Shown: piece after piece, positions 3,135 through 42,241 of the stretch
Layout of the letters: every line of letters begins with the position of its first letter
Position numbering within the stretch: position 1 is the stretch's first letter
Assembly (NCBI GenBank): GCA_965214095.1
Contig: OZ243938.1
Span: 608,001 to 672,000, forward strand
DNA: 64,000 nucleotides
From: Candidatus Poribacteria bacterium
GTDB lineage: Bacteria > Poribacteria > WGA-4E > WGA-3G
Direction: 5' to 3'
Translations under genes and position numbers: made by a program
Notes under the pieces: generated by a model
The model's input: the letters and a program-made list of their open reading frames with translations, nothing else
Database searches by the model: none
What the model was told of the DNA's origin: nothing

Positions 3135-3794
3135 CTATAATAAATAGATAAATGTGAAAACCATGATCCAGATAAGATCTACAAAGTGCCAATAGAGTCC
3201 AACAATTTCTACTTCATGGTTAAATTCAGCAGTATATCTCCCACGCAGACCATGGATCAGGATAACTATCAGATATATTACACCACCAGTTACATGCAAT
3301 CCGTGGAATCCAGTGATAGCATAGAAAGTGGGACCAAACAGAGTAGAACCACTAATTGCAGCACCTGATAGTCCATGGTCTGGAATACCTGTCAAAGTTA
3401 ATCCGTGTTTGATTAGATGTGTCCATTCATACACTTGCAATCCAAGAAAAATAACACCACCTAAAATTGTTAATCCAAGATACATACACATCCGAGAGAC
3501 GTTACCCTTCTGAATTGACTCTAATGATTTAACCATAGTAACACTGCTGCAAATCAACAGAAATGTCATACCAGCGGTCAGATTTATGCCAAGAATCTCA
3601 CTGGGTGTCACCCATCCGACTACGCCTGCTCCAGCTCTGAGTGCTGCATAAGCCGCGAGCAAAGCACCAAATGACATGGTATCGCCAATGAGGAATATCC
3701 ACATGCCGAGTTTGCCAAGACTATCTGGTGTAAGCGATGGTTCGTATACGTCTTCAGTATGTTCTAAAGTGGTAGCTTGTTCCACTATACTCAA
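3135..3794 (-). CDS. Heme-copper oxidase subunit III (paralog 1); start may be GTG 3785
   Basis: KLGMWIFL, LICSSVTM, TGFHGLHV, GLYWHFVDLIW motifs. Confidence 0.92.
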   Translation of the reverse strand: MSIVEQATTLEHTEDVYEPSLTPDSLGKLGMWIFLIGDTMSFGALLAAYAALRAGAGVVGWVTPSEILGINLTAGMTFLLICSSVTMVKSLESIQKGNVSRMCMYLGLTILGGVIFLGLQVYEWTHLIKHGLTLTGIPDHGLSGAAISGSTLFGPTFYAITGFHGLHVTGGVIYLIVILIHGLRGRYTAEFNHEVEIVGLYWHFVDLIWIMVFTFIYLL

Positions 3795-3887
3795 CTCCTT
3801 TATTATTGTTATACCTATTTTATTCTCATATAACTACATATTTCAATTGCAATTATTACCGATTTACTTCTATCAACAATTGCGTAT

Positions 3888-4757
3888 TTATTTTTTTCCT
3901 ATCTGAATTCGATTATTAGCTATGACAGACATTTCTTTGTCAATCTCAAACCCAATGAACTCTCGTCCCTCTTCAAGTGCTGCCCTGCCAGTTGAACCTG
4001 AACCAGCAAATGGATCACATACGATTGATCCTTCCGCAGAAAATATCCTAATGAGATGTCGCAGCAAAGGAACAGGTTTGGCAGCGATATGTCCGAACTT
4101 CTCACGCGGTTTGGGAACAGGAATCACTGTACCGGGAAATCTTTCGTTTTCAAGAACTGGATTAGATACATCAATGAGTCCCGTCTGATGTTGTAACCAA
4201 TTGTCAACGAATGTTCCTTCACGCGGAGATTGCGCTAATATAATCAACTCCATCTGTGGCTTAAGTTGCGGTGTCTTTCTACCACCTAATGCTTGAATAA
4301 TCCTCTCTTTTTCATCATTTGGAAGGTTGCGCTTCCGAACGAAATGGTCTTGTTTAAATGCTTTTGCTTGTCCTTCATATCGCCATGCTAACATATCACG
4401 AATTTCAAAACCGGCATCCTCTATGGCAATAGCTGCACGATGCGATAATCTTGGATGTGAAAAACAGAGAATAAACCCTCCAGGTTTGATTATCCTAAAC
4501 CATTCTTCAGCTATCGGTACCAGAAATCTGTATAGATTTTTACCTTGTTCCTTGTCAAATTTCATACCAACAGGCAGTCCACCAATAACACTTTTCTTTT
4601 GTCTGGATTTAATTTGTTGTTTGTCCCAGTTGTCATCCAATCCATCAAGGAAATAGGGTGGATCTGTTAATATCAGTGAAACAGTATGTGTGGCAATTTT
4701 GGACATCCCATTTCTACAATCAATGCATTCTATCCAAGAGTCGCCACTATTCTTCAT
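3888..4757 (-). CDS. Site-specific N4/N6 DNA methyltransferase, beta class, orphan
   Basis: LILTDPPY (motif IV) precedes H..KP..L and VCDPFAGSGSTG (motif I), then GFEID. Confidence 0.9.
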   Translation of the reverse strand: MKNSGDSWIECIDCRNGMSKIATHTVSLILTDPPYFLDGLDDNWDKQQIKSRQKKSVIGGLPVGMKFDKEQGKNLYRFLVPIAEEWFRIIKPGGFILCFSHPRLSHRAAIAIEDAGFEIRDMLAWRYEGQAKAFKQDHFVRKRNLPNDEKERIIQALGGRKTPQLKPQMELIILAQSPREGTFVDNWLQHQTGLIDVSNPVLENERFPGTVIPVPKPREKFGHIAAKPVPLLRHLIRIFSAEGSIVCDPFAGSGSTGRAALEEGREFIGFEIDKEMSVIANNRIQIGKK

Positions 4758-4983
4758 TATGTTTTATGTCTCTATTTGCGCGTCTATAAGAATAGAAAAC
4801 ACTCCCACCGATGACACCAAACACAGTGAAAGGCATCGCCATCATAAACAGTACACTCCAATTGAATCCGCGTGCAATCGGTTCATCTAAGTTTTTACAT
4901 GCAGGACATGCATCAAGAGAAAGCGGTATAATTGCAACAATGAGTACAGTTATTAGTAAACTCAAGACCATTTTCCGTAACAT
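4747..4983 (-). CDS. Small membrane protein with CPAC motif (cox-operon associated)
   Basis: Likely start is ATG 4983 behind a GAAGGAG RBS (the track extends it to 5052). Signal/TM, then ACPACK, then a second TM. Confidence 0.7.
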   Translation of the reverse strand: MLRKMVLSLLITVLIVAIIPLSLDACPACKNLDEPIARGFNWSVLFMMAMPFTVFGVIGGSVFYSYRRANRDIKHNEE

Positions 4984-4994
4984 TAAAGTCTCCT

Positions 4995-5570
4995 TCAGGC
5001 GAAATACACTAAATAGTAAAGTACAGGCCAAAGTGCAACCACATAAATCCAATAGATAGTACAGGTCTCAACACCTGTGTGATTTTCAGATGAAAACCTT
5101 CCTGTCAACGACATACCAATGACAATTGCTAACCAAATTACTGCTCCTAATACATGAATAGCATGACAACCGATAAGCACATAAAACGTAGCACCATATA
5201 CACCAGATTGAAGCGTCAATCCTTTACCAATTAGTTGAATCCACTCACTACCTTGTATTACGAGAAAAAGCAGTCCTAATGCTCCAGTGAAAAGTAAGTA
5301 ATATCGTAGATACTTCACCTTATCAAGTTGAATTGATCGTAATGCTTGAAACATCGTAAAGCCGCTAATAATCAGAAGTCCAGTATTGATACCTGTTACC
5401 AACCGTGGAAGTTGAATATCAGCATGAGACAATGGAGGCCATGTAACATTCCCCATTCGATATACCAAGAATGTTCCAATCAGTCCTGCAAACAACATCG
5501 TCTCAGCACCCAGGAGTATTAATACTCCTAATTTGGCATTACTAAATGGGCGATTTTCAGCAATTTCCAT
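4995..5570 (-). CDS. Heme-copper oxidase subunit III (paralog 2)
   Basis: LGAETMLFAGL, WPP, INTGLLIISG, GCHAIHV, YWIYV motifs. Confidence 0.9.
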   Translation of the reverse strand: MEIAENRPFSNAKLGVLILLGAETMLFAGLIGTFLVYRMGNVTWPPLSHADIQLPRLVTGINTGLLIISGFTMFQALRSIQLDKVKYLRYYLLFTGALGLLFLVIQGSEWIQLIGKGLTLQSGVYGATFYVLIGCHAIHVLGAVIWLAIVIGMSLTGRFSSENHTGVETCTIYWIYVVALWPVLYYLVYFA

Positions 5571-26568: not shown

Positions 26569-27054
26569 TTAGACTTTCAAAGATGCACCAGAGTCACTCC
26601 ATTGACCTTTTTCACCTAAAAACTTAACAGATTTATCTATTTGAAGTTGTCCATCCTCAGCCAAGGTAATCTTCACACGCTCAAGCGGTCGTGGTGCCGG
26701 TCCTTCATAGTTTATACCATCACGATCAAAACCGCTACCGTGGCAAGGACATTTAAATTTGTTTTCTGATGAGAGCCAACGCGGAGTACATCCTAAGTGC
26801 GTGCAAGTGGTTAGTAATGCATAAAACTCTCCATCTTCGCGGCGAACAATCCACACACCAAAAGGTTCTTTCTTGAATTTTTCGCTTACACTACCCGCTG
26901 GATATTCAGCAGGAAAACCAGCTTTAAAGACAGATGAAGGTTCATACAATACACGCGGGTATAAATAACGCACTAAACCCGGACCGAAACATAAACCGAG
27001 TGCAGCCGTAAAACTACCCCATCCAAGTGTATTGAAAAATGCTCGTCTTGACAA
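26569..27054 (-). CDS. Rieske 2Fe-2S subunit
   Basis: Tat-like SRRAFF; CTHLGC and CPCHGS; GPAPRPL. Confidence 0.95.
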   Translation of the reverse strand: MSRRAFFNTLGWGSFTAALGLCFGPGLVRYLYPRVLYEPSSVFKAGFPAEYPAGSVSEKFKKEPFGVWIVRREDGEFYALLTTCTHLGCTPRWLSSENKFKCPCHGSGFDRDGINYEGPAPRPLERVKITLAEDGQLQIDKSVKFLGEKGQWSDSGASLKV

Positions 27055-27269
27055 CGTTTGTGCCCCCTATCTACGAATCACATTATTTATTTTGTAAAAG
27101 TATATCACAATACAAACTTCTTTGCATGAAATTTGACTGCTTTAAAATTACTTTATCACGGATATCCGTGAATTTTGAAGCAGGAACAACAAAGCGAATT
27201 TGATGTAACAAATAACGTGAGTTGGATAATAGGTATATGAACTTCATTTTCCTAAATATTACTCTCATA

Positions 27270-27670
27270 GACCCGGTAGGTGCGGTTTCCAAACCTCACC
27301 ATAGGTGTCAATTTAGCGGTTACCTAATCCCTCTTCCATTGTTGGAGTGGTTTCTAACCACGATAATGTGGATCTTCCATTGTTGAAGTGGTTTCTAACC
27401 ACGATTTACAGGTTTTGGCTCAAAAAATCGGGGTTACAAACCCCTCCAACAATAGCGGATATCCTTATATTGACCCCTATGGTGAGATTTCCTAACCTCA
27501 CCATAGGCATCAATATAGCAAACCACAACCCGCTCTAGGCGCGCTTTGATGAAGATTAATTTATTAAACGGGTAATTCTCATATTCTCAAACCCGGTAGG
27601 AGCGGTTTCCTAACCGCTCCGGACTTCTCATGGAAATTACCTGATTTATTTCTTAATCTTCATTAAGCGC
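27270..27670. repeat. Cluster of GGTAGG..GGTTTCCTAACC REP hairpins and inverted-repeat shells
   Basis: GGTAGGTGCGGTTTCC.. and GGTAGGAGCGGTTTCCTAACCGCTCC hairpins; shell ATGAAGATTAA..TTAATCTTCAT; duplicated CTTCCATTGTTG.AGTGGTTTCTAACCACGAT. Confidence 0.7.
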
Positions 27671-27876
27671 ACTAGACATATCATATATGAAATATAACGA
27701 TGTGTGCAATTTTAGGTTGATATCAGCAATATCTTCTCAATCTTAAATGAAACCACAGGAGCGGCACCACGAACACTGAAAACATTAGAAACTTGCTAAT
27801 GTGCAGTAATGCTCAGTTGACACCTAGGTTCACAACAAATATCAAAGTTAAATTCACGAATTCTTGAGCGGATATG

Positions 27877-27915
27877 AAAAACGGCTCAAATCAAGTTATT
27901 ACTGGATTTAAGCCG
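27877..27915 (-). terminator. Rho-independent terminator
   Basis: CGGCTTAAATC..GATTTGAGCCG followed by TTTTT on the minus strand, downstream of 27942. Confidence 0.6.
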
Positions 27916-27941
27916 ATTTAGAAAATGTCCGATATTTGCGC

Positions 27942-28619
27942 TTATCGGGTGTTTTTGATGCTTGCCCATTTTGTTGTGAGCTTGGATTTAGGGTCTACGG
28001 GAAAACTGGTATCGCCGAAGTACTCAATTTCGCCAAGTTGAAAGTTTTGAACGGTTTCAAAAGCAATAAACCGAAAGAACCGATATCCGATATCTTGATC
28101 GTCGTAATCATCTCCTGCATCAAAACGGATAACTTGCAGGCGCGCATCCCACACACTACCCCCTTCGTGAGCAAAGATGGTCGTAAAATCTTCGCCGTCG
28201 TTCGACCCCTGGACTTCCCACACTGTCGGGTCTCTATTAGGAACATCGTTCGCTGAAGATACGGTGAAGTGTGTTAATGCATATTCTTCTTGAAACTCAG
28301 CTGTCACGTGTATGCCTCCCGCCGGAAGGTTTGCCGGTCCTCAGCACCATTTCGCATTGCCGCCGCCAAGTTGGTTATCAAAGACGTTAAACGCAAATTC
28401 CCCACCACCGAATCCGGGTTCTTCGCTAGATGTGAAAATGGCGTCATAACCTTCATCTGCATCAGGCAGTCCATCGTCTTCTGGGTCGGTTAGGTCTCCA
28501 CCAAGCAGTGAATCCGTTCCTACACCCAAGATTTCCTCAGCCTGTGCTATGTCGCTTGTGCTGAAAACAAACAGAGTCATCATCAACGCAAGTGCTGCTA
28601 ATACGAACATAATTCTCAT
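27942..28619 (-). CDS. Secreted discoidin/F5-8 type C-like protein, predicted selenoprotein (C92-U93), 225 aa
   Basis: Track ORFs 28341..28619 and 27942..28307 are in the same frame, separated only by TGA 28341-28343 plus 11 sense codons (KWC-TGA-GPANLPAGGIH-VTAEF). Signal peptide; ND.P.RDP..WEVQGSNDG..F and QLGEIEYF motifs. Confidence 0.75.
28315..28340 (-). promoter_or_regulatory. Putative bacterial SECIS element
   Basis: UGA, 11 nt, then CCUUCC-GGC-GGGAGG hairpin; apical loop starts with G, 17 nt after the UGA. Confidence 0.6.
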
Positions 28620-29292
28620 TCAGTACTACCTCCTAAGAGAAATGAATCTCACTTTTACGTGAGTTTCGCGTTAAGTTACGTTAGTTTGAATAAACTGCAT
28701 CAATTTTACCATTCAAATCTTTACTAATCTGTGTTCCATCATAGCATTTTATTTGAAATTATCAATTAATTCTAGAAATTCAATATTATTTTCAATAAAT
28801 TATGAAAACAGAGCAATGAAGTAGAGTATCATAGAGAACTTTGTGCAGTTACTCACCCAAAACAAAAAACTGATTCATTAACTGTGTTCCTATTAAGACA
28901 CTTTATTTGAAAACAGCATATATTATATAGAATGCCTTAATAAGTCCCATCATATCGTAGTTTGACATAATTGTCAACTAAAAATCAATGGAAATCCACC
29001 AATTATTTCAAAAGAGTGTGTAATTACCAATATGAAATGTCATTTCATAAAAGATTCGCTGGAGGAGTAAGAAAGATTCCAAATACTGAATATGGATATA
29101 TCTTTGTAGGAGGGAACTCAGATTCCCAATTTATCTGGCGCTTCAGATTTTTGGAGAGGACACTCCACTAGATAATAAATCACTTCAAAGGAAACAAGAT
29201 TTTCCTTTGAAGCGATTTATCTACCGTAAAGATTTTGCTTCAAACCTACCAACACAGCAATACATTTTCAATAAAACTAAGAACCTTGACAG

Positions 29293-31776
29293 TTAACGTA
29301 ATATCTTTACATTGATAACCGGACTGTCTTGTTGAAAAGTCTTTCCGTTTATAATAGCAGTAGCACGAAATCTGACCTGATAGGTCTTGGCTTCCAAAGA
29401 ACTCAGTGCCTCTAAATCTACTTCAATATCATTTTCATTGATAGGTATAGTCGCATCTGGGATAGTGATACCTTCTGGCACCGTTATCGGTTTTATAGTA
29501 ACAATATCCGTAAAACTTCCCTTCCGAACAATGCTCATTGTAAGTGTTGCAGATTTGGTAATCGGTTCAACCTTCGTCTCAGGTTCTGCTTGTGAAGTTT
29601 CAGTTGGACTCGGATTTGAGACCGCGACAGTTTCACCTTCTGCTGCTGCTGCCTGTGGTGCAGTTTCGTCTGTTTGCTTTGGAAATACAATGCTAAAACG
29701 CAATGGTTCAATCGTTACAATAAATGGTGCTTCAACGACTGTCAAAGGTATAACAGGAGATGACTCGGAATAGTTTTCTCGGTTGACATTCGCGGTACCA
29801 CTCACAGAAATGTAACTTGTTCCTGGAGTGGGGACAACAGAGAACTGCTCTCGACGTTCAACTGTACCCGCTCTCAATGAAATCACTGCACTATTTTTAC
29901 CCGCAGGAATTGTTGCCTTTCCGCCTGTGATACGAGCCGGAACACCTTGCACATTTAAGGCAATTGCCCCAGTGAAGTCAGCCCTTCGATCCGCAATCAC
30001 ATGAAAGTTTGTAGCTTTATTGTGAACAACGTTCACATCAACATCAGCAAATGATAGTGTAAATGGTGGTGTGTCCAACACCGTCAAGAGAATACCTTTC
30101 GGTGATGCAGTTTCCTCTATACGTTGACCACCAACAGCACTAACGCCAACAATAGAAAATGGATGTAGTCCCAACTCAGCGTCCTTTGGTGCGGTAATCG
30201 TTAACAGTGCTTGATTTTGACCGGGAAAGAGAATAGTTGGACTAACAACAAATCCTTTGGGTAGATCAGGAGAATAAAAACGGAGTGCACCATTGAATCC
30301 ATCTATCCGTCCAACTGAAGCAGTCAACATAAGCGTGCCACCGCGGCTAATCCGAGGATTGTCAGCATTCACACTCAAACGAAAACCTTGTTTCAGAGTA
30401 CGTATTGTAAGTCTATACGGAAAATTACTACCACCTGCATTATTTAGGTCTCGTATTGAAATACCGTAATCACCGGCTTCTGGGAATGTAAATGCAATCC
30501 TTGCGTCTGTTCCACTTGCATCATCATTGACCCGTAATATCTGTTCTACTACACTTCCTTCTGCTTCACCCTTTTTATGTGAATAGATAGTTAGCACCGG
30601 GTCGAGATGTGAACGGAACTCGCGTGCTTTTACATCAAAGACTAAACTCGTTCCTTTTTCAACTTTGATGGAATACCTATCTACATCTCCTTCTTTCTCT
30701 ATTCTACCGTTGACTGTGATCGGTGTACCAATTTTGTTTTCTTGTGCCAACGCATCATTCGGTTCAGTCTCGTTAGTCTCATTAAATTCACCAATAGCAA
30801 ATGGATATGGGTTTGTCTCTAAACCGTTGGGATTGCTAACTCTGAGCTCCTGAATGCCAAGTGTTGCATCCGGTGAAATATCAAGTTGTATCGCATTCAC
30901 AGATCCCAAATTAGCACCAGCAACATTGACTGTATTTGCAGCACCGCGTTTTCCACCTAATGGAAAAACACTCTGAAGATAGGGTAACTCTCCGATATTC
31001 AACCGATATAGATAATTGCCACCACCTTGGTATCTCACATCACGTAGGTGTAGTGTATATTTCCCTGCCATTTGGGTCGTATAATCAATAAATGAATCTA
31101 ACCCATTCCCATCCAAACTTTTTACAACCTCAGTACCATTTGGGTCATACAAAACCATATACGAATCTAAAGGAGACCCAATACGTTGCGCGAATATATC
31201 AGATATGAGACGCGCTCCTTTTCTTAAATTAAAATGAAATATATCCACATCATCAATAGAAGCAACCGTACCATTAACAGTAACTGGCAACTCAAGCATA
31301 TTTGATTCTTCATTGGTAGAATTTGGCTCCTGCTCCTTCATCTCAGGGAGGTCACCGACCATGAAGTTTTGTGGGTTCGAGACACCGTTTGGTGTGATAA
31401 GACGTATCTGATGATTCCCGAGTGGTGCGTTCGGTGCAATTTCAAATGACAGAACTAACCGAGGGTCATTTGGAATGTTCGCTGAAATACCAGATCCTGT
31501 AAAGCGAACGGTCGCTACAGGTGTTTTTTGCTTTATTTCTGCTTTGATACCTTCTTTATTAAGCCAAATCTTCGCACTTTCGTCTATGTTTTTTCCGACT
31601 AATGTTACTTCGATCGTTTGTCCGCGTTGTGCTGCACGTGGGGATATACTCGACAATTGTGGCGCAACTTGGGCATGTGATATCCCTACAATCAAAAAGA
31701 AGGTTAGGACAACTTGAATTAGGAATTGTTTTTTATACTTTGTTGCTATATGTTTACAGAATAGTGGTTCAAGCAT
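29293..31776 (-). CDS. Secreted PPC-domain (pre-peptidase C-terminal) repeat protein, Planctomycete type
   Basis: Repeated E.EPN, TVNG.I...DVD.F, SPLDS, AG.Y.L.LRD..Y.GG..Y.YRL motifs. Confidence 0.8.
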   Translation of the reverse strand: MLEPLFCKHIATKYKKQFLIQVVLTFFLIVGISHAQVAPQLSSISPRAAQRGQTIEVTLVGKNIDESAKIWLNKEGIKAEIKQKTPVATVRFTGSGISANIPNDPRLVLSFEIAPNAPLGNHQIRLITPNGVSNPQNFMVGDLPEMKEQEPNSTNEESNMLELPVTVNGTVASIDDVDIFHFNLRKGARLISDIFAQRIGSPLDSYMVLYDPNGTEVVKSLDGNGLDSFIDYTTQMAGKYTLHLRDVRYQGGGNYLYRLNIGELPYLQSVFPLGGKRGAANTVNVAGANLGSVNAIQLDISPDATLGIQELRVSNPNGLETNPYPFAIGEFNETNETEPNDALAQENKIGTPITVNGRIEKEGDVDRYSIKVEKGTSLVFDVKAREFRSHLDPVLTIYSHKKGEAEGSVVEQILRVNDDASGTDARIAFTFPEAGDYGISIRDLNNAGGSNFPYRLTIRTLKQGFRLSVNADNPRISRGGTLMLTASVGRIDGFNGALRFYSPDLPKGFVVSPTILFPGQNQALLTITAPKDAELGLHPFSIVGVSAVGGQRIEETASPKGILLTVLDTPPFTLSFADVDVNVVHNKATNFHVIADRRADFTGAIALNVQGVPARITGGKATIPAGKNSAVISLRAGTVERREQFSVVPTPGTSYISVSGTANVNRENYSESSPVIPLTVVEAPFIVTIEPLRFSIVFPKQTDETAPQAAAAEGETVAVSNPSPTETSQAEPETKVEPITKSATLTMSIVRKGSFTDIVTIKPITVPEGITIPDATIPINENDIEVDLEALSSLEAKTYQVRFRATAIINGKTFQQDSPVINVKILR

Positions 31777-40549: not shown

Positions 40550-42241
40550 CTACTTTGCGGTAGCAGTAAAACCCACTGTTTTAACGACATCTGTGAGTTC
40601 GTCAACTTTTGTTGTGTTCTTACGAACCTTAATAACTGCTTGATCAGGGAGAGAAACTTCGGCACTAATAACGTTCTGATGTTTTGTAAGTGCATCCTGC
40701 ACTTTTGCTACACACGCACTTCATGTCATACCCGATACTGTCAATACCACCTCTTCGCTGGCAGTTGTTTCTATTGGCACGGACATAAACATTTTCAGTT
40801 GACTACCTGAGTTTGCATCAAAGATACGAATTTTGCCATCAAAACCGCCTGCAGCAAGTTGTGTGCCATCTGGATGAAAAGCAAGTGCAAAAACTGATAC
40901 GGTATCACCTTGCATTGATGCCAACCGTTTCCCATCTGCTACATTGTATATACGTGCTTCTCCAGAAGAACTACCCGTAGCAAATTTGCTTCCATCTGCA
41001 GAAAAGGCAACAGACTTAATTGCCCCAGACTGCGCTTCGTAAGCACGAATGAGATTGAAGTCTGTGTTACCAACATCTCTACGAGTTTGACGGAACATTC
41101 TATAAAGTCTTGGAATTCGGTCTTCTCCTACACTTAACACCTGGTCTTCATTAGGATGCCGTGCAATTGCGTTGATTTCTCCGTAACCTTTGTTACTTGA
41201 ATTTACATCGTCTACAAAAGAACCTGTATCAACTTCAACCAATTTCAGGGCAGTATCACGACTACAACTTACAAAATGCGATCCATCAGTAGAAAATACA
41301 GTACCGAACACCCAATCACCATGATTGTCAAATTTAACAAGTTCCTTCTCGTCCGCTACAGAGATTACACGCACAGTCTTATCAGAAGAACCTATAGCAA
41401 CACGGGACACATCTGGTGAAAATGAGAGTCCATAAATTGTGTCATAAGTTGAACGGATTGCTTTGTTAAGTGTGTTCGTTGCAGTATCCCAAAGCTGTAT
41501 TTCTCCAAATTGTGCAGGAGAACCGCCAGCAACCCCAAGTGTTTTACCGCCATCCGCATAGACAATTGATGTTATGCGACGGGCTTTTCCAACATATCGC
41601 GCTTTGATCTCAAAGGTCTTGGAATCATACAATAAGACTTCATTAACACCTGACACAGCGAGTGTCGTTCCATCAGGTGAAAAAGCAAGTGCTGAAACAA
41701 CTGGTGGCACTGTGTATACAGGAAGTTCGCCATCCATTGCATCTGCATTCTCTGGAGTATCATCCTTCGCTCCCTCAAGAATCCATCGTCTGAATAAATC
41801 TATCTCTTCTTTGGTGAGTGGGTCTTGATTCTGTGGCATAGCAGGTGGATCCCCAGAAATAAGTTCAATGAGTAAACTTTCATCCGGTTTGCCTACAATG
41901 ATGGCTTCTCCTGCCATTCCACCCCGTTTGAGCTCAGCATAAGTCGTTACTATCAAATCTGCATTTGGATCACCAGGGTGATGACAACCTTGGCAGCTAC
42001 GTTTTAGGATCGGTACAATCTGTGTATGGTAACTAACCGGTTTCTCTTTATCGTGACCGTCTGCCATAACGGAAGGATTCCAAAGTAAAAAACTGATTAA
42101 AATTAGACCAAAATAAGATATAAACTTCATACTTGATATACTCATTTTTGTATCACTCCCTAAGATCACACAATCTGCAACATTTGAGATTATTAACACA
42201 ACTTTGCGGTAATTATACAACAATTCCAACTTATAATTCAA
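40550..42241 (-). CDS. Planctomycete cytochrome c (PSCyt1) + WD40 propeller + C-terminal HMA domain with U-x-x-C; predicted selenoprotein
   Basis: CQGCH and WD repeats. The track stops at TGA 40721-40723 inside VVLTVSGMT*, but the frame continues SACVAKVQDALTKHQNVISAEVSLPDQAVIKVRKNTTKVDELTDVVKTVGFTATAK to TAG 40550. Real start is probably MSISSMK or MKFISYF. Confidence 0.88.
40685..40720 (-). promoter_or_regulatory. Putative bacterial SECIS element
   Basis: After the UGA: UGUA..AAGUGCA-GGA-UGCACUU-ACA, a perfect 7-bp upper stem with a G-first loop 23 nt from the UGA. Confidence 0.7.

Follow-up and report, generated by a model that had tools for sequence, protein, structure and literature searches.

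A probable selenoprotein with an internal Cys-Sec pair in a secreted CBM32-like domain of Candidatus Poribacteria

Does an in-frame TGA in the middle of a small, apparently exported protein of Candidatus Poribacteria end translation, or does it specify selenocysteine (Sec)? The question is raised by a 64,000-nucleotide (nt) stretch of DNA (hereafter the window; positions 608,001 to 672,000 of contig OZ243938.1, assembly GCA_965214095.1), on the minus strand of which a gene at 27942..28619 runs for 225 codons and a TAA if a single TGA at codon 93 (28341..28343) is read through. With TGA translated as U the gene forms one 225-residue frame, ...NVFDNQLGGGNAKW-C-U-GPANLPAGGIHVTAEF..., in which the residues 5' of the pair are GGGNAKW, and Cys-containing homologs of 226-235 amino acids (aa) align with it end to end. 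Translation table 11 splits the gene into a 92-aa open reading frame (ORF; 28619..28341) and a 121-aa ORF that starts at a GTG (28307..27942). The original prediction, made from the DNA letters, was that these two ‘separate’ ORFs are one frame with a single TGA directly after a Cys codon, and the TGA=U translation bears this out. The analysis shows that the stop is conserved across genomes as a recoded codon, that homologs have Cys in its place, that the half beyond it is translated, that a hairpin in the RNA is under constraint, and which fold the protein has. Sec at UGA93, within a secreted CBM32-like protein, we consider highly likely, and we take this to be a real and probably undescribed selenoprotein family using standard bacterial recoding; we infer both that the residue inserted is Sec and that the protein is exported.

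The residue that homologs carry opposite the TGA is Cys. A search of a 5.8-billion-protein set returned 366 near-length homologs, nearly all of about 231 aa and with source names of Candidatus Poribacteria, and in an alignment of 35 full-length sequences out of the 120 homologs listed, the columns of C92 and C93 are invariant Cys (KWCCG) in 35/35. When 1.84 billion cluster representatives were scanned without a profile, 1,170 relatives emerged at E ≤0.001; from 148 of the 150 best distant representatives we obtained 191 domain copies, and 172 of these have CC at the pair columns. The TGA column is thus occupied by Cys, and not by the Trp, Arg or Gly that had been named in advance as the marks of a simple nonsense mutation. 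The interrupted form also recurs in protein collections as truncated products. Among the 120 short homologs listed (<123 aa), 62 clusters end exactly at ...KWC (57 of them at 92 aa, and one being the window's own), 13 are C-terminal halves starting MTAEF (again with the window's own among them), and six stop one residue earlier at ...NAKW (P0209, P0213, P0215, P0217, P0219 and P0220).

At the DNA level we scanned one genome per species with the degenerate motif FDNxxGxxNxKW-[TGH]-[TGH]-G; all counts are lower bounds. At least 122 distinct sites were found, and among the matches listed 103 are Cys-Cys, 18 Cys-TGA and one TGA-Cys. All 19 TGA sites listed belong to Poribacteria, which contribute 97 of the listed sites from 62 genomes, 15 of these having a TGA form; the other 25 listed sites, from Planctomycetota, Verrucomicrobiota and further groups, have Cys-Cys without exception. 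The comparison of KWCC with KWC-TGA that had been suggested for this position therefore finds both forms, with the same TGA in many genomes. The TGA-Cys variant (KW-TGA-TGC) is a single DNA copy on the minus strand of its locus (L120:300-345), with a +1 frameshift after GSNDG.

If the TGA is translated, the codons beyond it should look like those of a protein, and they do. The downstream frame is intact for 132-138 codons, up to a conserved tail and TAA, in 13/14 of the loci with the Cys-Sec pair (CU loci) that have enough flank. Across 91 pairs from 14 intact TGA genes, the ratio of nonsynonymous to synonymous change (dN/dS, NG86) is 0.228 downstream of the TGA versus 0.219 in the 65 codons upstream, at a dS of about 0.6, and Gly94, the residue after the TGA, is invariant in these genes but coded as GGA, GGG or GGC. 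A split gene is one alternative, with translation stopping at UGA93 and restarting at GTG104, GGGAGG serving as the Shine-Dalgarno sequence, to give two separate polypeptides. A GGRAGG does lie 7-8 nt 5' of the GTG, and annotation pipelines call two ORFs here, both ‘hypothetical protein’ at NCBI. However, in 4/14 intact genes the supposed start is GTA, GTT or ATT, the 10 codons from the stop to the GTG stay in frame, Gly94 being kept over its synonymous codons, and the second half has no signal peptide; moreover, the Pfam domain and the predicted beta-sandwich cross the break, and there are hundreds of uninterrupted homologs. Since the start codon varies, the intervening codons remain in frame and half a beta-sandwich lacking a signal peptide makes no sense, we regard such a restart as very improbable.

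Shortly after the UGA lies a hairpin like that of a bacterial Sec insertion sequence (SECIS). The original prediction placed a CCUUCC-GGC-GGGAGG hairpin 11 nt past the UGA, and this is correct: the 11 nt GGACCGGCAAA separate the TGA from a SECIS-like element of 6 base pairs (bp) and a 3-nt loop at 28315..28329 (arms CCUUCC at 28329..28324 and GGGAGG at 28320..28315, loop GGC at 28323..28321), which is the exact RNAfold centroid of the window sequence at -7.2 kcal/mol. An 11-nt spacing from UGA to stem is that of the E. coli fdhF SECIS. To compare homologs the hairpin was anchored on the His codon of HVTAEF, giving the same 21 nt in all TGA forms, which fall into two classes. Class A, which includes the window gene, is CCUUCC-GGN-GGRAGG, and 11 nt separate its stem from the UGA. 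Class B is GGCAUUCC-GGN-GGAAGGCC; its stem contains an A.G mismatch but is longer by two G-C pairs, and the hairpin is preceded by one additional codon. Every TGA form makes the hairpin (20/20), the energies lying between -5.0 and -11.0 kcal/mol with a median of -7.9; the loop is GGC in 12, GGA in seven and AGA in one, so that a G occupies loop position 1 or 2 in all. The Cys forms of Poribacteria (78, less one with an N, leaving 77; the comparison did not include 21 rows from outside Poribacteria that lack the anchor motif) have a median of -2.6 kcal/mol, 49/77 lack a closing pair and only 1/77 reaches -7.9; the two sets differ at p=1.3e-11 (Mann-Whitney, not corrected for phylogeny).

A test that depends less on relatedness than this comparison of energies is provided by synonymous sites. 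In the 14 intact TGA genes synonymous diversity (pS) is 0.085 in the seven hairpin codons versus 0.407 in the rest of the gene, and nonsynonymous diversity is higher in the hairpin codons, at 0.21 versus 0.114 elsewhere. Five of the six lowest-pS positions among 198 sliding windows overlap the hairpin, and residue changes within it are tolerated where pairing persists (GGA/GAA, giving U.G/U-A) or in the loop (GCG/GAG). This is the pattern of synonymous constraint expected of an RNA element embedded in a coding sequence. For bacterial SECIS elements (bSECIS) the published consensus (PMC13188914) sets the apical loop at 3-9 nt with a G at position 1 or 2, the upper stem at 4-16 bp, the distance between UGA and apical loop at 16-37 nt, and the minimum free energy at -7.5 kcal/mol or lower. 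The window hairpin lies within range for its loop (GGC), its 6-bp stem and its 17 nt from UGA to loop. It resembles the E. coli fdhF-type SECIS and the bSECISearch model in being a coding-region hairpin directly after the UGA, here with a 6-bp stem and a 3-nt loop containing GG, but differs from them in its very small triloop, short stem and marginally weak energy, in its division into classes A and B, and in having no Rfam match.

Several observations weigh against reading UGA93 as Sec. The 72 nt that follow the Cys codon fold at -13.7 kcal/mol, with a z-score of +0.67 and 151/200 shuffles folding at least as well; because the single-sequence fold is no better than chance, the significance of the hairpin rests only on the comparison of homologs. 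The core hairpin, at -7.2 kcal/mol, falls just short of the -7.5 consensus limit (PMC13188914), and a weaker version of it is possible in 20/77 Cys forms. The original prediction had called for a check of both SECIS conservation and compensatory changes; conservation held in every TGA form, but the stem has no compensatory double changes, one pair varying one-sidedly (U-A/U.G) and class B carrying its A.G mismatch. No Rfam family was found in the whole window at gathering scores, and when the threshold of a local scan was relaxed to E ≤10, nothing came up beyond a snoRNA match attributable to chance. The 3' arm GGGAGG, 7 nt 5' of the GTG, resembles a ribosome-binding site. Two of the 15 assessable TGA genes (L051 and L120) are frameshifted. 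Finally, within the 64-kb window, to which the search was confined, no selA, selB, selC or selD was seen: there is no tRNA, and none of the 43 large ORFs matches a sel family.

The distribution of Cys and TGA forms on gene trees bears on whether the stop is an accident. Trees were built from 63 Poribacteria genes, and then with 39 more Cys forms (102 rows), leaving out L051, L120, non-Poribacteria rows and genes of <200 or >290 aa. In both, the window gene belongs to a clade made up solely of Sec forms: nine genes, one from each of nine genomes, and every one with TGA (support of 99 in the SH-like approximate likelihood ratio test, SH-aLRT). The remaining TGA forms occupy three further tree positions. 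At least four state changes are needed, of which strongly supported branches alone force two in the 102-row tree and one in the 63-row tree. Several genomes hold class A and class B Sec genes alongside Cys paralogs, and Poribacteria keep Cys and Sec paralogs side by side. The genome of the window may likewise have a second Sec copy, as another 92-aa homolog comes from a contig equal in length to that given for the two halves of the window gene. Family members also occur in tandem arrays of up to four in about 4 kb (L015, L017, L092-L094, L112-L115 and other loci), and in some genomes Cys and Sec copies are adjacent, such as the Cys gene L092 beside the Sec gene L093 in one array.

A multi-copy family of this kind is where a decayed copy might be looked for: a change of TGC or TGT to TGA is one base, each genome has many paralogs, and the two frameshifted TGA copies elsewhere could be cited for a pseudogene or a sequencing error. 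Yet a lesion in one copy does not account for a TGA that recurs at ≥18 sites, spread over ≥15 genomes, and that is seen in 62 protein clusters as well, for a Sec-only clade of nine genomes, for a downstream dN/dS of 0.23, or for a hairpin that is specifically conserved. Given the recurrence of the TGA, the dN/dS and the Sec-only clade, we take a pseudogene or sequencing error to be excluded for practical purposes, and the Cys column, the recurrence, the downstream dN/dS and the conservation of the hairpin together show that the TGA is not a one-off nonsense mutation. Some individual TGA copies may nevertheless be decaying genes, or errors of assembly or of metagenome-assembled genomes (MAGs), since L051 and L120 are frameshifted. 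In L051 a class A Sec-form gene (L051:349-702) is frameshifted about 50 codons 3' of the TGA, and its MAG also has a class B Sec copy.

We also asked what UGA means more generally in the window. TGA ends 7/42 long ORFs of the window, and a global reassignment of UGA was rejected, as TGA ends other window genes at their normal ends. One of the seven cases is a second frame that continues through a TGA (40550-42241, minus strand, TGA at 40723..40721), in which a WD40 beta-propeller runs into a C-terminal HMA domain (PF00403, E=2.2e-9). Here the TGA stands at the first Cys of GMT-C-SAC (the GMTCxxC motif), homolog clusters end exactly at ...GMT in 22/22 cases, and about 19 nt past the UGA there is a hairpin whose loop is rich in G; a match to NF041115 lies below its cut-off. 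This WD40/HMA protein is a probable second selenoprotein in the window, likely the one that the original prediction counted as the first, and both HMA-type and metal-binding UxxC/UxxU selenoproteins are already listed families (PMC13188914). For the lineage as a whole, Sec-containing group 4 hydrogenases have been described from Poribacteria MAGs in 2026 (PMC13582414), and in a 2017 study most bins of sponge symbionts are reported to contain SelA and SelB COGs (PMC5649159).

These observations help to judge whether a standard tRNA, rather than the Sec machinery, reads the codon. Were UGA93 decoded, wholly or partly, by a near-cognate Cys or Trp tRNA, the product would be an ordinary protein, or a regulated mixture of 92-aa and full-length forms, and no selenoprotein; every sign of translation past the stop would fit this equally well, and neither sel genes nor a tRNA-Sec were seen in the window. 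But leaky read-through needs no hairpin maintained at synonymous sites in 20/20 genes, and the hairpin in question meets the bSECIS limits for loop, loop G and spacing. An invariant Cys column is moreover the classic Cys/Sec signature, a second conserved TGA in the window falls on a metal-binding Cys, and Sec use in Poribacteria is on record (PMC13582414). We therefore hold decoding by a standard tRNA to be improbable, and favour Sec at UGA93.

The protein that would carry this residue has a lectin-like fold. The original prediction of an F5/8-type-C, or discoidin-like, domain is confirmed on three counts. A match to PF00754 (F5_F8_type_C; residues 63-167, at 28119..28433) runs across the TGA, its score of 32.7 bits (E=8.9e-8) exceeding the gathering cut-off of 28.2, and the homologous module extends over about residues 28-205. 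The AlphaFold2 model, built from a 45-row alignment, has a mean predicted local distance difference test score (pLDDT) of 87.7, mostly >90 over residues 28-205, and a predicted TM-score (pTM) of 0.78. Foldseek groups the model with CBM32 and discoidin structures (probability 1.0, E as low as 4e-9, TM-scores of ≤0.75 on the target), among them GH92 (7nsn), CpGH89 CBM32-5 (4a44/4a41), muskelin, CASPR2 and factor VIII. In the model residues 2-19 form a helix, W91-C92 a short bridge and 103-121 a long strand, and U93 opens a loop of ten residues (93-102). The beta-sandwich is the same as in CBM32/discoidin modules such as Clostridium perfringens GH89 CBM32-5 (4a44, 4a41) and the GH92 mannosidase 7nsn, but identity to solved CBM32 domains is only 12-21%. 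By sequence, the PDB yielded 7nsn alone, and since this match covers just the C-terminal half, no solved relative shows the CC pair. The vicinal KWCC/KWCU pair is a hallmark of this subfamily. In NCBIfam the read-through protein (P0001) matches 0 families at E ≤1.

Distant relatives extend the picture beyond small proteins. In P0243-P0390 the KWCC domain forms one part of larger proteins, the longest of 3,906 aa, and two or three copies in one protein are common. Its partners in 53 long representatives are further F5/8 domains, bacterial TSP3, LamG, PA14, cadherin-like, PKD, FBA, RTX and dockerin modules, and no catalytic domain was found in these 53 at E ≤1e-8. Because the KWCC domain co-occurs with such modules and with no catalytic domain, the domain architecture points to a role in extracellular binding or adhesion for the family.

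The remaining features of the window gene fit a small, putatively exported protein. A Shine-Dalgarno-like AGGAGG (28629..28634) lies 9 nt 5' of the ATG (28619..28617), which opens a putative signal peptide of residues 1-27 (28539..28619), recognised by eye from its MR, hydrophobic core and AQA before EE. The Cys92 codon TGC (28344..28346), first of the vicinal pair and an invariant column in homologs, immediately precedes the TGA. After the domain comes a conserved C-terminal tail of residues 206-225 (27945..28004), with near-invariant columns VDPKxKLTTxWxSIKxxR and a pLDDT of <50 at 213-225; its sequence in the window, VDPKSKLTTKWASIKNTR, has no hydrophobic segment. This tail, predicted disordered, strongly conserved and specific to the small Poribacteria proteins (there VDPKxKLTTTWGSIKxxR), may be a sorting or anchoring signal. 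The read-through protein has no NCBIfam match to a PEP-CTERM model, despite the ‘PEP-CTERM’ label at NCBI on some homologs. A terminator-like hairpin (27929..27948), weak evidence since it comes from a consensus scan only, overlaps the TAA stop (27944..27942). The original prediction had noted this hairpin as the only one; its position at the end of the gene stands, but it is one of six terminator-like sites in 27000-29400.

No conserved neighbourhood accompanies the gene. Pfam searches of 35 ORFs flanking 14 CU loci gave mixed neighbours (Pterin_4a and peptidase M48 in one subgroup, LNT, paralogs, WD40 and LamG), none of them common to the window, where the neighbours are Rieske/cytochrome b genes and a PPC-domain protein; there is accordingly no operon clue to function. 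The 0.9-kb gap up to the Rieske/cytochrome b genes (27050-27945) is without a long ORF and full of palindromic units related to one another (direct repeats of 51 nt and 33 nt, and several inverted repeats of 24-37 nt), and it too contains a terminator-like hairpin (27444..27430). Further off, at 3135-5570, two COX3-like genes (3135-3794 and 4995-5570) flank an N6/N4 DNA methylase gene (3888-4757) within a long respiratory cluster of COX1/2/3, CtaA/CtaB, SCO1, many c-type cytochromes and Rieske/cytochrome b.

Taken as a whole, the scheme we propose is that UGA93 would be decoded as Sec, with the hairpin 11 nt downstream acting as a bacterial SECIS that would recruit SelB carrying Sec-tRNA(Sec), to yield one 225-aa precursor. 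Removal of the signal peptide would then release an exported protein of about 198 aa, predicted to fold as one CBM32/discoidin-type beta-sandwich, followed by the short, conserved tail. In this mature protein the invariant vicinal Cys-Cys pair of the domain family, KWCC, would be Cys-Sec, and from its place at the start of loop 93-102 the pair would tune an extracellular binding module. Tentatively, it may do so as a redox latch, through a redox-active eight-membered selenenyl-sulfide ring of the kind that the original prediction put at the protein surface. That it might instead be a soft-ligand site for a metal or metalloid we think less likely.

A Sec residue directly after a Cys is known from other families, and the vicinal CU-motif families on record include SaoC, SaoL, HgcA, CopZ-family form 2, KCU-star, MbdU and SaoB, several of which have been suggested as metal or metalloid ligands (PMC13188914). 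The present protein shares with them the CU order and the same bacterial UGA/SECIS recoding, but the families and folds are unrelated, and here the pair is internal to a secreted lectin-type domain rather than C-terminal or part of a metallochaperone. The mammalian thioredoxin reductases have a C-terminal Gly-Cys-Sec-Gly centre that forms an eight-membered selenenyl-sulfide ring. The likeness to this centre, a vicinal Cys-Sec followed by Gly (here W-C-U-G), is a chemical analogy only; unlike the reductase, the window protein has its pair away from the C-terminus, lacks a flavoprotein disulfide-reductase domain and depends on recoding of the bacterial type.

The CBM32/discoidin-type family is absent from Table 1 of a 2026 inventory of 119 prokaryotic selenoprotein families (PMC13188914) and goes unmentioned in the main texts, or the text-readable supplements, of deep-Sep and BSepDB. 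In the open literature, about 8.4 million papers, we found none linking Poribacteria, sponge symbionts, discoidin or CBM32 with such selenoproteins. The suggestion in the original prediction of an undescribed selenoprotein family fits these absences, together with that from NCBIfam, and probably this is a new family in a fold and a location unusual for Sec, served by an ordinary recoding mechanism. As public annotation splits these genes into two ‘hypothetical proteins’, dozens of records are mis-annotated and the family has been missed by genome annotation.

An internal Cys-Sec pair in a secreted protein of the CBM32/discoidin type would broaden the range of folds and locations in which selenium is used, and would show Sec in extracellular proteins of the candidate phylum Poribacteria, which are sponge symbionts. 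The invariant KWCC motif draws attention to a functional site that has gone unstudied although the domain family is large, and the Cys and Sec paralogs that stand side by side in the same genomes are a ready comparison of what Sec adds over Cys. A speculative and in our view doubtful reading is that KWCC/KWCU might be the working centre, a redox-active or soft-metal/metalloid-capturing vicinal dithiol, of an extracellular module that is filed as a passive lectin domain in about 1,170 representatives, and that Poribacteria upgraded it to Cys-Sec at least twice independently, keeping Cys and Sec paralogs for different sponge-host conditions. If that were true, no selenoprotein with the fold of a carbohydrate-binding module would precede this one, and it would be a natural experiment in Cys versus Sec conducted outside the cell.

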